Sequence record: OZ335958.1
Reading direction: 5' to 3' (one strand)
Source of the DNA: a phage
Length of the DNA: 64,000 bases
This document shows positions 1-46,571 of the stretch, one piece after another. The notes under the pieces were generated by a model. That model searched no databases. It was not told the DNA's origin and saw only the letters and a program-made list of their open reading frames with translations. Both the position numbers and the translations under genes were made by a program. Position 1 is the first letter of the stretch. The number at the start of each line of letters is the position of its first letter.

Positions 1-16
1 ACAATAAATTTAGGCA

Positions 17-859
17 TTAATCAACTGCTATTGGATGAATAGCATTAAACTTATGAAACGCTTCTGATTTTTCTTTGCGCGAAACACACATGCGAAGAAC
101 CTTTAATGGTTCGTCTTCTTCACCCAACGATTTTCTCTTTTCAATATTCAATGTTTTCCAACGAGCTTGCTCTGGAAACTCTCTATTGATTTGCTCAAGA
201 GCTCTATTATGTTTTGAATTACTACGAATTGAACTGCACCCGCCCGGAGCCTGTGCTTTTCCAGATACAACCAGATATTTGAACAAGGCCAAATGTGGAT
301 AACCTTGATTAATTAAATTGAGAAATGCATACATATCTTCGCATAAATCAATTTTTCCATACCCAATTTGTTCTGTCGTAAGTTTTCCGAGGTCATACCA
401 AGTATTCGTGAATCCATATGAATTTTCACGATAATTACCCCAAGATGAAGTAATTTTAAAAATAGGCAGACGAGCATGACCATGATAATACCCGCAATCC
501 ATGGCATCTTCAACGTATTGAATCAATTCATAGAACTGTTCACGAGTTAATTGATTAATTTTATCTACGCAGCGACGATCATCTTTCTTTCGCATTGAAC
601 TCATACGAATAGTAGTATCATCATCAATCATCCAAATTCGTTGACCTGCATACATATCAGTAATTGCTTTACGAGTACCAGCAATTCCGTTAACATCATC
701 AGGAATAGTTATAATTTTAGCTCTAGACCCGTAAGCGTCATAATAAGCCTTTTCTTCATGTTCACGTACTACAATATGTGGTTCATAATCAGTCGGAAAC
801 ATATCAAGGGCAGAAACTGCCCCTACGCGCTGATAGCTTGGAATTACGAATTGAATCAT
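17..859 (-). CDS. putative DNA-modifying glycosyltransferase at the beta-gt locus (about 280 aa, not T4 Bgt-like)
   Basis: Track ORF 17..865 begins at GTG; first ATG at 859 overlaps gene 42 stop (ATGA junction). DDD motif (IWMIDDDTT). Position next to gene 42 matches the T-even glucosyltransferase locus. Confidence 0.45.
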   Translation of the reverse strand: MIQFVIPSYQRVGAVSALDMFPTDYEPHIVVREHEEKAYYDAYGSRAKIITIPDDVNGIAGTRKAITDMYAGQRIWMIDDDTTIRMSSMRKKDDRRCVDKINQLTREQFYELIQYVEDAMDCGYYHGHARLPIFKITSSWGNYRENSYGFTNTWYDLGKLTTEQIGYGKIDLCEDMYAFLNLINQGYPHLALFKYLVVSGKAQAPGGCSSIRSNSKHNRALEQINREFPEQARWKTLNIEKRKSLGEEDEPLKVLRMCVSRKEKSEAFHKFNAIHPIAVD

Positions 860-1596
860 TTCCACTCACCGTTATAATCTTTTTTCGCAATATGAGTTTC
901 GCCAGTTTTCCACCAATGGTCAACCAAATAAAAATGACGGGAATACACATGAAGGCTTCCGACATTCCATATAATGGAACCTGCTTTATACTGACGAGTT
1001 GAATCACCTGCATTCAAATCAGATACTAATTTATCTAGTACGTATTTTTGCCATGCATAATCATTACGGAATCCGAAGACCACGTCATTTGAACGCATGC
1101 TTACTACTGCATTGACTTTCTTATCACGAATCAGGTACTGTACTGTATTCGTACACATGAAATCTGACATACCATCTTTATTGTAGTCAAACTGCATGGA
1201 TGGACGAGTATAAATCATGATACCGCGTCGAGAATCAGGATTTTGACCAAGTTCAGCTAAACACATATCATACTGGGCATAGTTATCTTCTGACCAGATG
1301 GCCCAACCATAATTCGAGTTAATTTCGCCTTTAGAAGATGCTACCTGTTGCCAAATCTTTGGTGTTTCACCTGGAATATCTTTAACAAACAGACTTTGAG
1401 ACTTATACCATTCAAGTTCACGTTGAATGTATTCATCATTAAGAGCGCCAAAAATAAAAGGTTCATCTGCTACAAATGATGCACCAATAATTTCAATAGT
1501 TTTAACACCAGTTTTATCAATTACGAAATCTTTTTCCTTTAATGCAAGACCCAAATCAAGACGGATTTCTTCAACTGTCATATAATCGTTAATCAT
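856..1596 (-). CDS. 42: dCMP hydroxymethylase
   Basis: 246-aa ORF, ATG start; length and sequence recognised as T4 gp42; gene order 42-imm-43. Confidence 0.9.
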   Translation of the reverse strand: MINDYMTVEEIRLDLGLALKEKDFVIDKTGVKTIEIIGASFVADEPFIFGALNDEYIQRELEWYKSQSLFVKDIPGETPKIWQQVASSKGEINSNYGWAIWSEDNYAQYDMCLAELGQNPDSRRGIMIYTRPSMQFDYNKDGMSDFMCTNTVQYLIRDKKVNAVVSMRSNDVVFGFRNDYAWQKYVLDKLVSDLNAGDSTRQYKAGSIIWNVGSLHVYSRHFYLVDHWWKTGETHIAKKDYNGEWK

Positions 1597-1749
1597 TTAA
1601 ACCTCAATTGATGCATTCATATTTAACTTGTAACAGTAATAAACCCCAACCTATAATAAGTGTCGGAATCATACAAGGAACCGTTACGCTATAGTATATA
1701 CTTATTATAATCATCAAAATTAAAAGCAATACTGCTAAAATTTTGCTTT

Positions 1750-2001
1750 TCATTCCTTCTCTCTGATGATAATTACTTGGTTTTGCTGTGCAGATTTTTT
1801 AGTTTCACCCGCAATTGACCAAATAAATGTAATAAACCAACCAATAATTGACCAATTAAACAGTAAAGATGTGAAAAAGATTCCTACTGTCGATTTTGAC
1901 CCACGCATCAAGGCGATGAACCACGGAAGCATGTATATAATAATAGCCAACACGCCTGAAACTAAAACCATAAAAATTGAACCTGCTACTAAAGTTTCCA
2001 T
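1750..2001 (-). CDS. imm: superinfection immunity membrane protein
   Basis: 83-aa ORF with two hydrophobic helices, located between 42 and 43 as in T4. Confidence 0.7.
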   Translation of the reverse strand: METLVAGSIFMVLVSGVLAIIIYMLPWFIALMRGSKSTVGIFFTSLLFNWSIIGWFITFIWSIAGETKKSAQQNQVIIIREKE

Positions 2002-2008
2002 GTTTTCC

Positions 2009-2389
2009 TCACTTAGTCAAATTTTTTACACATGAATTATAAGAATTCACTACATACTCCATTGGAGCATTTTTACCAGTACGCCATTGGTAATTATTAG
2101 CCCAATTAGCCCAAAGTTCGGCGCAGTAGTTTTCAATTTTTTCTTCGCGTGTAATTACATCTGAATTACGATATGCTTGAGCAGATTCATCTGGACGAAT
2201 AGCTTCGTCAAAATTCGCCTGCATTTGTTCTACTGTCTGTTTTGGAGCTTCTTTATAACATTTAACATTAGGATTATAAAATTTGCTTGAACAGTTTACA
2301 ATTTTTCCTGCATCAGACTGATTTACTATCGGTCCTTGAGCTACACATCCAGTAAGACCTAATGCAATAACCAAAATAGCGATTTTCAT
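2009..2389 (-). CDS. predicted lipoprotein (imm.1 position)
   Basis: Internal ATG at 2389 gives 126 aa starting MKIAILVIALGLTGC (lipobox); upstream part of track ORF covers promoter DNA. Confidence 0.5.
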   Translation of the reverse strand: MKIAILVIALGLTGCVAQGPIVNQSDAGKIVNCSSKFYNPNVKCYKEAPKQTVEQMQANFDEAIRPDESAQAYRNSDVITREEKIENYCAELWANWANNYQWRTGKNAPMEYVVNSYNSCVKNLTK

Positions 2390-2423
2390 TTCATTCTCCA
2401 AATTTGTATTGGTTGATAGAGTA

Positions 2424-2453
2424 ATAGTACCACAGAGGAACAGTCTTGTAAAC
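2424..2453 (-). promoter_or_regulatory. T4 early-type promoter (GTTTAC -35, 18-bp spacer, TACTAT -10)
   Basis: Minus-strand GTTTAC at 2453..2448 and TACTAT at 2429..2424; one of about eleven copies of the same 50-bp motif family. Confidence 0.5.
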
Positions 2454-2570
2454 AGTTTTGTGAAAAAATTTTTAATGAATTTACAGGACCTAGAATCATC
2501 TATTTTTCCTAAGTATAGATTTATATTACTTGTATGAAAAAGGGACCCGGAGGTCCCTAGATTTATTCTA

Positions 2571-5267
2571 TCAGCCAAACAGGAAGTCTAACGAAGCTTT
2601 TTCCTCATAGTCCATACCTGCCGATTCACACATGCCCGCAAGAGGTTTAACAAACGATTTTTGGAACAAAGTTGAGTAGTCAATCCAAGACAGTACGTCA
2701 GAACGAATTTCTTTTGGAAGTTCTGTGCCTGATGGCCAAGCAATGCACTTGTCACCAAATGGATTTCCTTCACGTAATGGAAGAACCATTACCTTATTTC
2801 CATCCAAAATTGGAGCTACACCTAAACCACTAACAGCTCGACGATAAGTTAGCACACCACGAATATGGAACGGACATTTAAATCCTGGCCAACCTTTATC
2901 ATCATATTTCGCTATATCGTTCGCAGTTTTTACTTCAGCAATAACTTTATAGTCAAGTTGACGATATTCTTTCTCAAAGTTCTTGTAGTATTCTTGGACA
3001 GACTCTTCACCTTCCTGAAGAATACGACGAATACTTTCTTCGAGGGCTTCTTGTACTGCTTTTGGTGTTGAACTCTGCTGAGTTTCCATACCCATGATTT
3101 TTAGATGCGGTTCAGCAAATCGCTTATCTTCCATATCATAAACGTTCAGAGCATAACGTTTTTTCGCTTTCCAAAATCCACCAACACCCTTTGAACCAAG
3201 TGGAGGGCAAGAAATAGCTTCACGGTCCATATGCATCAGATGCTCGCGGTTATTCATATAATCACATAACTCACGATATGCAACATCAATCATAGGTTCC
3301 ATCTTTTTCTTACCAAACTGATTCATGAATTCAACTAAATCATTTTGTTCTTTAAAGCGGTCAAGACCTACTTTTTCAATAACTTTATCTACACAAACAT
3401 ATACCGAATCAGTATCACCTGCTGCGATGAAATCTTCACCATTAGTTCCACACACTTTATTTAGATACTCATTAATTTTACGAGCAATCCATTGAATACC
3501 AACTTGACCGAAAATTGTGATAGCAGTAGCATTTCGCAAATCATAGTAACGGAAATGAATATTACCAAGAGCACCATAAAGACTGTTAATAAGAATTTTA
3601 CGGTTCAGCTGATTTGTGTTAGCAAGCGTAGCTGCTTTTTCACATTCTTCGATCAGACTATTAAGAACAGATTCGGTGTAATTCGATAATTTGTTTAAGA
3701 AATCATCATTGAACTTAACATATCGTTCAACTTCTGGTTTAGTTGAACAAGACCCTGCACCTTTCATAATAATCTTTTTAATAGCTTCGGCATTCATTTC
3801 TTCCGCGAACATTTTCTTTTTCCAATCTTTACGCTGGAAAAATACTTTAGCGATTTCCTTTGGAATGATACCTTCTTGGTGCTTATCATACATCCATCCA
3901 TTCGGAGAGCAAGAATATTCATCACTTGGCTTAGGAGCTGTTCCTGCGATATATTCATGAATTGGATGAACTTTAAACTGCCCACGAATAGTCTCAGGAC
4001 TAATGTTAACCTGACGAATAATGCTAGGATACAGAGACGTCAAGTCAAAACTCATAATGTATCTACGGGCAATCGGTTTAGGTTCAAACACAAATGCACC
4101 TGGAAAACTCTGTTTAACGTGCGAACCTTGTTGAGGAATAACCTTATGTTCACCTTTCAGTGAGTTAAAAATAATAGCATCCCAAGTTTTAATAGGACTC
4201 ATTACACCAGAAAAAGGCATTTTAGCGTAATAAGACATACTTAAAACTAGATCGATAAACCCACGAATTTTATCAATTGCTTGAACTGATTCTACGTCAA
4301 TGATGTTATAACTAATGTATCGTTGATGATTAGTCTCACGAAGTTTATTAATAGGACCATCATATGGTAATTTACCTTTTTTGGTTTCATGTTGAGCAAC
4401 TGATTCCAAAGAGAACGATGGCAAATTAGTAAATGCGAATTTCTTGTACAAATCTAAATAATCAAGAATAGATACGCCATCAATAGAATAAATTTCTTTG
4501 CTACCGTACATATTTTGAATTAGTTTAGATTTTACTCGACCGATTGGAGAGAAGCGTTTCATACTACGTTCGCCTAGAACCATTTTAACACGGTTCATGA
4601 TATACGGAACGTCAAATCCCTCAATATTCCAACCAGTAAAAATAGCGGGTCGTTTCTGTTCCCAGAGATTAATATATTCCATGAGCATATCACGCTCATT
4701 ATCAAATGGCATATAAATTACTCGGTCAAGAATTTCTTGAGGAACTTCATCACCACCTTCGCAGTCAAGCTTAGCAGCTAACTTTGCATCCCATTTTGAT
4801 ACTGAACCGTACATTGAATTCAATAAATCAAAGACGTAAAAACGATCGTCAATTGAATCATAATGAGTGATAGCATCAATTTCATATTCTGCTTTCATTG
4901 GGTCAGGAAATTTATCGCCAGTAACCTCAATGTCACAGTTAGCCACACGAACAAATTTTCGGTCATAAACAATTTCTGAACCATATGTATCACTGATATA
5001 AGCGAGTTTAAAATCGTTCATACCGAGAGCTTCGAGACCGATGTCTTCCATTCGCTTCATCCAGTCTCGCGCATCTTTCATTGATGGAAATTTTTGAGGA
5101 GCGCAATTTTTACCATAAATGTCTTTGTATTTTGACTCTTCCTTACAATGCCTAAACATAGTCGGAAGATATTCTACTTCACGGGTACGTTCCTTTCCAT
5201 TTTCATCAATATAACGCTCAACAATATTATTTCCGACTGTTTCGATAGAGATATAAAATTCTTTCAT
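2571..5267 (-). CDS. 43: DNA polymerase (family B)
   Basis: 898-aa ORF, ATG start; N-terminus MKEFYISIETVGNNIVERYID and full length recognised as T4 gp43. Confidence 0.97.
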   Translation of the reverse strand: MKEFYISIETVGNNIVERYIDENGKERTREVEYLPTMFRHCKEESKYKDIYGKNCAPQKFPSMKDARDWMKRMEDIGLEALGMNDFKLAYISDTYGSEIVYDRKFVRVANCDIEVTGDKFPDPMKAEYEIDAITHYDSIDDRFYVFDLLNSMYGSVSKWDAKLAAKLDCEGGDEVPQEILDRVIYMPFDNERDMLMEYINLWEQKRPAIFTGWNIEGFDVPYIMNRVKMVLGERSMKRFSPIGRVKSKLIQNMYGSKEIYSIDGVSILDYLDLYKKFAFTNLPSFSLESVAQHETKKGKLPYDGPINKLRETNHQRYISYNIIDVESVQAIDKIRGFIDLVLSMSYYAKMPFSGVMSPIKTWDAIIFNSLKGEHKVIPQQGSHVKQSFPGAFVFEPKPIARRYIMSFDLTSLYPSIIRQVNISPETIRGQFKVHPIHEYIAGTAPKPSDEYSCSPNGWMYDKHQEGIIPKEIAKVFFQRKDWKKKMFAEEMNAEAIKKIIMKGAGSCSTKPEVERYVKFNDDFLNKLSNYTESVLNSLIEECEKAATLANTNQLNRKILINSLYGALGNIHFRYYDLRNATAITIFGQVGIQWIARKINEYLNKVCGTNGEDFIAAGDTDSVYVCVDKVIEKVGLDRFKEQNDLVEFMNQFGKKKMEPMIDVAYRELCDYMNNREHLMHMDREAISCPPLGSKGVGGFWKAKKRYALNVYDMEDKRFAEPHLKIMGMETQQSSTPKAVQEALEESIRRILQEGEESVQEYYKNFEKEYRQLDYKVIAEVKTANDIAKYDDKGWPGFKCPFHIRGVLTYRRAVSGLGVAPILDGNKVMVLPLREGNPFGDKCIAWPSGTELPKEIRSDVLSWIDYSTLFQKSFVKPLAGMCESAGMDYEEKASLDFLFG

Positions 5268-11982: not shown

Positions 11983-12000
11983 AAAGGGCCGAAGCCCTTT
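11983..12000 (-). other. intercistronic UUCG-tetraloop RNA hairpin (agt-47 junction)
   Basis: Minus-strand AAAGGGC-UUCG-GCCCUUU overlapping agt stop. Confidence 0.5.
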
Positions 12001-13201
12001 ATTTTGTAATAATGTCAAACTGTTCTTTAAAGCAGAAGCTTGAATCTTGATGCTGATACAAAAATTCATAAGCTTTTTCGCGTTCACGGTCATAAAGAGC
12101 TCGGTCAGATGACAGTTCTTTAATACGTTCAAATGTTGATTCCATGTCATTTTCATCAAACCAAACGATACCGCTATCATGTGAAATTAACGGAGTATTA
12201 TCAACACGGAATTTTAAATTTTCACCAGTAGATTTCCAAAATACTGGAATTGTTCCACATGCACCAAGCTCGAGATGAGTATATTCTAAAGAACGCTGTA
12301 GATATTTTTTGTCCAACTTACTCAGCTGATAACCAAATCCGGATTTACTCATGCGTTCAAGCATTTCGCTATTTACATAACGGTCAAGAATTTGCGTTGG
12401 CAAATTAGGAGCAATTTTAATTTGGTCTACTTGATGAAGACGATAATACTCATATGGAATTCCTTTTTCTTTAATAGGAATGAACGCTGGAGAACGTTCC
12501 AGACCTTCCATAATAGTACTTAGCCCAGCAGGTTTAAGATGTTTTTCGTGAAAATCAAACATCTGATAAAAACCTTTCCATGTAGTCGTACGACCAATCC
12601 AACGGTTGACATTCATGTTAATTTCAGAAACATCTTTCCAGTAGGTTGATCGAACCTTAGCAATATCCATAGGAGGCTGAAAGTTGTATACAGTCGGTGC
12701 TTCTTCAATATCGTCAAACAGTGAAACAGTTTCTGGATACCATTCTTTCATCAGAACTTTATTAAAATCACCATTATCAGAATGACTAAAAATAACATCA
12801 GCTCGGCGAACAGTTTCTTCTAATCCCAAATTTCGGCGCAAAGAAAGAGAAGAATGGTCATGTTGATAAACTACAACACGAACCGAAGGTTTAATGTTAT
12901 CAATAATTTTTTTATAGTTATTAATAGTGTCTTCTTCGACTGAAGTAGCAGGAACTGAATTGATAATTAGAATATCACAATCATTTACCAGCTTAAGTGT
13001 TTTATCGTATTCTTTTGCCAATAAAACCGGAATTGAAAATGATTTATAATCATGCGCGCAATTACGGGTAAATGATTTATCTTTAGCATAAACCAAAGTT
13101 ACTTCATGACCATTTTTAATAAACCAATCACGTTGCTCAAGAGAAAATTTAGTTACGCCACAACCTTCAAGACCTCGAGCCATAAAAATGCATACTTTCA
13201 T
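11999..13201 (-). CDS. agt: DNA alpha-glucosyltransferase
   Basis: 400-aa ORF, N-terminus ..CIFMARGLEGCGVTKFSLEQRDWFIKNGHEV recognised as T4 Agt. Confidence 0.9.
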   Translation of the reverse strand: MKVCIFMARGLEGCGVTKFSLEQRDWFIKNGHEVTLVYAKDKSFTRNCAHDYKSFSIPVLLAKEYDKTLKLVNDCDILIINSVPATSVEEDTINNYKKIIDNIKPSVRVVVYQHDHSSLSLRRNLGLEETVRRADVIFSHSDNGDFNKVLMKEWYPETVSLFDDIEEAPTVYNFQPPMDIAKVRSTYWKDVSEINMNVNRWIGRTTTWKGFYQMFDFHEKHLKPAGLSTIMEGLERSPAFIPIKEKGIPYEYYRLHQVDQIKIAPNLPTQILDRYVNSEMLERMSKSGFGYQLSKLDKKYLQRSLEYTHLELGACGTIPVFWKSTGENLKFRVDNTPLISHDSGIVWFDENDMESTFERIKELSSDRALYDREREKAYEFLYQHQDSSFCFKEQFDIITK

Positions 13202-45743: not shown

Positions 45744-45820
45744 TGGTCGAGGCAGTAGGGATCGAACCTACGACCCAGGACTTAGAAGGTCCTTGCTCTT
45801 CCTTCTGAGCTATGCCTCGG
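45744..45820 (-). tRNA. tRNA-Arg (anticodon UCU)
   Basis: Cloverleaf folded by hand; anticodon loop CUUCUAA; CCA encoded. Confidence 0.8.
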
Positions 45821-45823
45821 ATT

Positions 45824-45898
45824 TGGCGGACGTGATAGGATTCGAACCTATAACCAATCGCTTAACAGGCGATCGCTCTGCCATTGAGCTACACATCC
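45824..45898 (-). tRNA. tRNA-Asn (anticodon GUU)
   Basis: Cloverleaf folded by hand; anticodon stem AUCGC/GCGAU, loop CUGUUAA; T-loop UUCGAAU; CCA encoded. Confidence 0.65.
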
Positions 45899-45903
45899 AA
45901 ATT

Positions 45904-45989
45904 GGTGGGGAGTGATGGAGTCGAACCACCCGAGTCGCAATGACAATGGATTTACAGTCCACACCGCTACCTCTACGGGATAACTCCCC
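45904..45989 (-). tRNA. tRNA-Tyr (anticodon GUA), type II
   Basis: 86 nt; anticodon loop CUGUAAA; long variable arm; CCA encoded. Confidence 0.65.
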
Positions 45990-45997
45990 AAATTAAT

Positions 45998-46073
45998 TTG
46001 GTGGCCCTGGGTGGAATTGAACCACCATCTGGCGATTATGAGTCGCTTGCTTGAACCTTCCAGCTACAGGGCC
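45998..46073 (-). tRNA. tRNA with CAU anticodon (Ile2-type or Met)
   Basis: Anticodon loop CUCAUAA; T-arm GGUGG-UUCAAUU-CCACC; CCA encoded. Confidence 0.65.
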
Positions 46074-46074
46074 T

Positions 46075-46150
46075 TGGTGCTGATTGACGGAATCGAACCG
46101 CCGACCTTCTCATTACAAGTGAGTTGCTCTACCTACTGAGCTAAATCAGC
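46075..46150 (-). tRNA. tRNA-Thr (anticodon UGU)
   Basis: Anticodon loop CUUGUAA; 1 nt from the preceding tRNA. Confidence 0.75.
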
Positions 46151-46155
46151 AAAAC

Positions 46156-46245
46156 TGGCGGAGGCGATAGGATTTGAACCTATGAGTCGCCGGAGCGACT
46201 GCCGGTTTTCAAGACCGGTGCATTAAACCACTCTGCCACGCCTCC
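46156..46245 (-). tRNA. tRNA-Ser (anticodon UGA), type II
   Basis: 90 nt; anticodon loop CUUGAAA; sequence recognised as T4 tRNA-Ser. Confidence 0.85.
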
Positions 46246-46247
46246 AG

Positions 46248-46321
46248 TCTCCATACAAGGATTTGAACCTTGGACCTCCTGATCCCAAATCAGGCGCTCT
46301 ACCAAACTGAGCTACACGGAG
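46248..46321 (-). tRNA. tRNA-Pro (anticodon UGG), CCA not encoded
   Basis: Anticodon loop UUUGGGA; 2 nt upstream of tRNA-Ser (dimeric precursor arrangement). Confidence 0.75.
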
Positions 46322-46331
46322 TAAATTAAAT

Positions 46332-46405
<74 letters not shown>

Positions 46406-46410
46406 AAATT

Positions 46411-46497
46411 TGGTGCGAGAAGTGGGACTCGAACCCACAAGGAAATCATTCCGCAGCATTTTAAGTGCTGTGCCTTTACCAATTTGACCATTCTCGC
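46411..46497 (-). tRNA. tRNA-Leu (anticodon UAA), type II
   Basis: 87 nt; anticodon loop CUUAAAA; long variable arm. Confidence 0.8.
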
Positions 46498-46498
46498 G

Positions 46499-46571
46499 CT
46501 GGGAATAAAGGACTCGAACCTTTGCATCCTGGAATCAAAATCCAGTGCCTTACCAACTTGGCTAATTCCCA
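46499..46571 (-). tRNA. tRNA-Gln (anticodon UUG), CCA not encoded
   Basis: U1-A72 acceptor pair, anticodon loop UUUUGAU; 1 nt from tRNA-Leu (Gln-Leu dimer). Confidence 0.75.

Follow-up and report, generated by a model that had tools for sequence, protein, structure and literature searches.

A probable orthologue of the T2/T6 beta-glucosyl-HMC-alpha-glucosyltransferase gene beside gene 42 of a Tequatrovirus

Identification of the gene beside gene 42

The open reading frame at 17..859 on the minus strand of the window, by which is meant the whole 64,000-nucleotide stretch of phage DNA analysed here (record OZ335958.1), is very probably, judged by its sequence, an intact orthologue of the T2/T6 beta-glucosyl-HMC-alpha-glucosyltransferase gene (ba-gt), and the product would act with the DNA alpha-glucosyltransferase (a-gt) to form gentiobiosyl-hydroxymethylcytosine (gentiobiosyl-hmC). 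This analysis established the identity and intactness of the gene, the fold class, the conserved DxD and the synteny, and showed gene 42 and a-gt to be present. The features concerned are the following.

17..859, minus strand: coding sequence of ba-gt (also ggt or TAGT), 280 aa plus stop, with the stop codon at 17..19
617..625, minus strand: DDD codons for D79-D80-D81, the sole DxD motif in the protein
856..859, minus strand: ATGA overlap of the gene 42 stop and the ba-gt start, read from the sequence
856..1596, minus strand: gene 42, dCMP hydroxymethylase, 96% identical to T4 gp42 (Pfam Thymidylat_synt)
11999..13201, minus strand: a-gt, DNA alpha-glucosyltransferase (PF11440, E 5e-236)

A first-pass annotation had described a gene of about 280 aa with a DDD motif beside gene 42, and a protein of exactly 280 aa with DDD at residues 79-81 is indeed encoded there. 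It had placed the gene at 17-865, which corresponds to the ORF-finder call (minus strand, 282 aa, GTG start). A reading frame does open at that GTG, but the true start is likely the ATG at 859..857, the in-frame GTG at 865 being the ORF-finder start only, and the coordinates then become 17..859. These coordinates are also given by RefSeq to the homologous gene in the record of the collinear phage IME340.

The protein matched PHROG 842, 'beta-glucosyl-HMC-alpha-glucosyltransferase', with an E value of 1.3e-88 over residues 1-275, and Pfam PF20691 (TET-associated glycosyltransferase, TAGT) with 38.8 bits, the gathering cut-off being 27.5 bits; the latter match spans protein residues 3-207 and profile positions 2-205. 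The T2/T6 beta-alpha-glucosyltransferase had been named in the first-pass annotation as a protein for comparison, and alignment with the enzymes of T2 (AP018813) and T6 (AP018814, MH550421) revealed 98% identity over the full length of 280 aa. The T2 and T6 genes occupy the same place beside gene 42. This identity, combined with the PHROG 842 match, lends support to the earlier suggestion that the phage may di-glucosylate its hmC in the manner of T2 and T6. No family match was found for the protein in NCBIfam, and a sequence search of solved structures returned chance-level matches only (E at least 0.44). In all of the features compared, namely the profile matches, orthology, the fold with its motif, and the synteny of gene 42 and a-gt, the window protein agrees with the T2/T6 ba-gt.

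The ATG of ba-gt (859..857) and the TGA of gene 42 (858..856) share bases as ATGA, a junction in the sequence that suggests co-transcription and translational coupling of the two genes. The number of promoter-like sequences scanned in 1..2700 was within the shuffle range and none could be assigned to ba-gt, while the terminator-like count in the same region was only modestly above the shuffle range, again with none assignable to ba-gt. Expression of ba-gt is inferred from its ATGA overlap with gene 42. A 9-bp hairpin (5 G-C pairs; core GGGGCAG-TTT-CTGCCC) is located at 805-825 on the minus strand within ba-gt codons 12-19, just upstream of the codon for the internal Met20; the scan flagged it as terminator-like, and T6 has the identical sequence.

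Relationship to T4 beta-glucosyltransferase and RB69 ORF003c

The position beside gene 42 is the slot occupied in T4 by the beta-glucosyltransferase gene (b-gt), and this position is the sole support for reading the window protein as a beta-glucosyltransferase of the T4 type that has diverged, or as an arabinosyltransferase of the RB69 type. In agreement with the claim of the first-pass annotation that the protein does not resemble T4 Bgt, BLASTP against the 351-aa T4 b-gt (from NC_000866) returned nothing better than E 3.4, and tblastn of T4 b-gt against the whole 64-kb window gave no match at E 10 or below. Further, the window protein did not match PF09198, on which T4 b-gt scores 325 bits. 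A comparison with arabinosyltransferases had also been put forward; BLASTP against RB69 ORF003c, a candidate arabinosyltransferase, gave E 1.2 with no meaningful alignment, and the two proteins are judged unrelated. These results, and a predicted fold of the GT-A rather than the GT-B class, led to outright dismissal of both the T4-type and the RB69-type reading in favor of the T2/T6-type enzyme.

Predicted fold and conserved residues

A search of a large protein database with the window protein found only 11 relatives, mostly close, and the alignment was therefore shallow and the structural model of medium quality. The AlphaFold model has a pTM of 0.72 and a mean pLDDT of 69, with a confident N-terminal nucleotide-binding half and poorly modelled residues 126-148, 196-211 and 260-280 (pLDDT below 50). 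The best structural matches of the model are nucleotide-sugar transferases with a GT-A fold, whereas a-gt and b-gt of T4 have the GT-B fold. A GT-B fold of two Rossmann domains was rejected on the basis of this prediction, the top structural matches all being single-domain GT-A or nucleotidyltransferase folds.

In the model the DDD motif is located at the end of a predicted strand (E74-79). An alignment of ten homologues, reaching to approximately 30% identity, revealed that DDD 79-81 is invariant, that P7-S8-Y9 and R11 near the N-terminus are kept along with several other residues, R11 being invariant, and that P251 is nearly invariant. The structural search and the alignment together identify a GT-A fold with a conserved DxD in the window protein, and DDD 79-81 is presumed to be the binding site for the metal and the diphosphate of the UDP-sugar in a GT-A enzyme. 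The T6 TAGT has been described as a GT-A fold that is sister to GT2 (PMC13216743).

Distribution among phages

The block comprised of gene 42 and ba-gt (megablast, window 1..1700) was found in 475 phage records at 90% or greater nucleotide identity. The ba-gt protein was found by tblastn in 691 records, 472 of them at 95% identity or above and 90 at 99% or above. Approximately 470 Tequatrovirus records carry ba-gt at 95% or greater identity in the same position, and approximately 200 further records at 60-80% identity belong to T4-like phages of Klebsiella, Enterobacter, Salmonella and Citrobacter. Over its first 25 kb, the window is 96-98% identical to many Tequatrovirus genomes and collinear with them. 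The records and the collinearity therefore identify the window as part of an ordinary Tequatrovirus and the gene as its ordinary ba-gt.

The first-pass annotation had implied that the arrangement is unusual, a view contradicted by the 475 and 472 records: most Tequatrovirus genomes carry ba-gt beside gene 42, T4 being the exception (see also PMC13216743; PMC13390438). In published surveys the combination of an alpha-GT with a TAGT is common, and the alpha-GT plus beta-GT of T4 is rare. A 2026 survey of 753 GT-encoding phage genomes found alpha-GT and beta-GT together in only 6 of them, and most of the surveyed phages pair either an alpha-GT or a beta-GT with a TAGT (PMC13216743).

Neighboring genes and proposed pathway of glucosylation

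The alpha-glucosyltransferase was correctly reported as intact in the first-pass annotation. The window a-gt encodes 400 aa and is 91% identical to T6 a-gt over the full length. The order of genes around ba-gt matches that of T2, T6 and IME340, and past gene 42 the window continues with imm, imm.1 and then gene 43, encoding DNA polymerase.

The sugar, linkage, acceptor and fraction of bases modified in the window phage are those predicted by analogy with the orthologues. In the proposed pathway, gp42 would make hm-dCMP, the source of the hmC that is glucosylated later; after replication, a-gt would add alpha-linked glucose to part of the hmC residues; and ba-gt, presumably utilizing a metal and UDP-glucose, would add a second glucose in beta-1,6 linkage onto alpha-glucosyl-hmC to form gentiobiosyl-hmC. 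As the window contains no b-gt homologue, beta-glucosyl-hmC is not expected. If the phage resembles T2, T6 and the relatives that have been measured, approximately one quarter to one third of hmC should stay unglucosylated.

The pathway has experimental precedent in related phages. T6 without ba-gt loses gentiobiosyl-hmC, retains alpha-glucosyl-hmC and is more sensitive to Brig1 (PMC11078745), and BapA can release glucose from the DNA of T6 without g-gt (PMC13160076). Ten Tequatroviruses with an alpha-GT, and with a TAGT in the slot syntenic to that of T4 b-gt, were shown by HPLC/MS to contain alpha-gentiobiosyl-hmC and no beta-glucosyl-hmC, and in EH2, one of the phages measured, about two-thirds was gentiobiosyl-hmC (PMC13390438). 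The ba-gt of EH2 and that of the window differ at 3 of 280 residues (R92K, V101I and S237L, the window having K92, I101 and L237).

These three substitutions relative to a measured enzyme bear on the question of whether the window protein could be a TAGT enzyme of other specificity, with a different donor sugar, with hmC itself as acceptor or with a beta-glucosyl acceptor. Homologues of TAGT also occur with a beta-GT or without another GT, so that the wider family may vary in specificity (PMC13216743). Against this, the window protein is 98-99% identical to enzymes of known function, the column of residue 92 varies in the family alignment, R92K and V101I are conservative, and the presence of a-gt with absence of b-gt is the same context as in T2/T6. 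A change of specificity is thus considered very unlikely, and a second glucosyltransferase of the T2/T6 type is the preferred assignment.

In this assignment, ba-gt decides whether hmC in the phage DNA bears one glucose or gentiobiose. Published results show that gentiobiosyl-hmC protects DNA from the Brig1 glycosylase in vitro, and also from deglucosylation by BapA. The enzyme would therefore alter susceptibility to modification-dependent defences, and correct annotation of the gene helps in predicting host range and sensitivity to defence.

Extent of di-glucosylation and variants of the enzyme

The content of gentiobiosyl-hmC is approximately 5% in T2 and 72% in T6 (PMC6024577). Since T2 and T6 differ this greatly despite 98% identical enzymes, the di-glucosylated fraction cannot be read from the sequence. 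The T2 ba-gt (AP018813; stretch L002, 7283-8125), identical in seven T2 records and the SV76 record, differs from the EH2 ba-gt (stretch L007) only by R11H and P251S, and these two substitutions may be a candidate explanation for the low gentiobiosyl content of T2 (approximately 5%). The window ba-gt keeps both R11, specified by the codon at 827-829, and P251. Because the window has the family-consensus residues where T2 deviates, we lean towards a high gentiobiosyl level like that of T6 or EH2.

Two deposited T6 genomes carry differing lesions in ba-gt. In MH550421.1 (stretch L001, 7138-7980) codon 10 is TAG and the gene is consequently annotated from M20, and in AP018814.1 (stretch L005, 4135-4974) an in-frame deletion of 3 nt has removed one Asp of the DDD motif. 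The lesions suggest that damage to the gene is tolerated, or selected for, in laboratory stocks.

That loss is tolerated in the laboratory, as the two T6 genomes indicate, and that T2 contains only approximately 5% gentiobiosyl-hmC with an intact gene (PMC6024577) would both be consistent with a weak or inactive ba-gt in the window phage, leaving DNA with mainly alpha-mono-glucosyl-hmC as in T2. However, the window copy is full length with R11, P251 and the DDD intact, unlike T2 and the two T6 records, and the protein is held at 99% or greater identity by 90 records, results which make a weak or inactive product exceedingly unlikely. It is also conceivable, albeit improbable, that small polymorphisms of ba-gt set the extent of di-glucosylation and that K92, I101 and L237 give the window phage a mono:di ratio and a sensitivity to Brig1 or GmrSD-type defences of its own.

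Other features of the window

A strongly hydrophobic open reading frame of 49 aa (1604..1753, minus strand) occupies precisely the space from imm to gene 42, and its ATG overlaps the stop codon of imm as ATGA. T4 has a conserved copy (stretch L003, 2228-2377), and tblastn detected the frame in 727 phage records, with homologues down to approximately 50% identity in Mosigvirus-like and Erwinia phages. The reading frame is without annotation in the T4 RefSeq, T6 and IME340 records and is labelled 'hypothetical protein' in some others. A perfect 7-bp GC-rich palindromic hairpin (AGGGACC-CGGA-GGTCCCT) is located at 2541-2558, between imm.1 and the end of gene 43, and was flagged by the scan as terminator-like on both strands.

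Ten tRNA genes are clustered at 45744..46571 on the minus strand (Arg, Asn, Tyr, Met/Ile(CAT), Thr, Ser, Pro, Gly, Leu and Gln). T4 has eight tRNA genes, relative to which Asn and Tyr in the window would be extra. Comparison of the whole window with Rfam revealed no group I intron or other family at gathering score, and nrdD forms a single uninterrupted open reading frame of 605 aa.

Comparison with known systems

The enzyme, its product, the fold class and the distribution have already been described, and the window copy adds no new biology. Cellular GT2-type GT-A enzymes (for example TarS, TarP, RmlT and K4CP) were the best structural matches of the model and likewise have the DxD after the fourth strand of the nucleotide-binding domain. 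The candidate arabinosyltransferase ORF003c of RB69 (Mosigvirus) is likewise a glycosyltransferase of a T4-like phage that acts on modified cytosine in DNA (PMC6024577), but is without sequence similarity, has a proposed GT-B fold and a different sugar, and is located elsewhere in the genome, next to rIIA.1 and gene 39.

The T4 b-gt (PF09198) fills the syntenic slot beside gene 42 and is, like the T2/T6-type enzyme, a UDP-glucose-dependent modifier of hmC DNA that forms a beta linkage, as established for b-gt (PMC13216743). The two are nevertheless unrelated in sequence, with 351 versus 280 aa and a GT-B versus a GT-A fold, and the acceptor of T4 b-gt is hmC itself whereas that of ba-gt is alpha-glucosyl-hmC.

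The closest likeness is to the ba-gt of T2 and T6, with which the window protein shares its length of 280 aa, 98% identity, the DDD motif, the GT-A-type predicted fold, the position downstream of gene 42 and the partners gene 42 and a-gt; the ATGA junction is identical in T2. At the positions of K92, I101 and L237 in the window protein, T2 and T6 carry R, V and S, while the substitutions R11H and P251S of T2, the substitutions Y40N, D55G and R106H of T6, and the lesions of the two T6 records are all absent from the window ba-gt.
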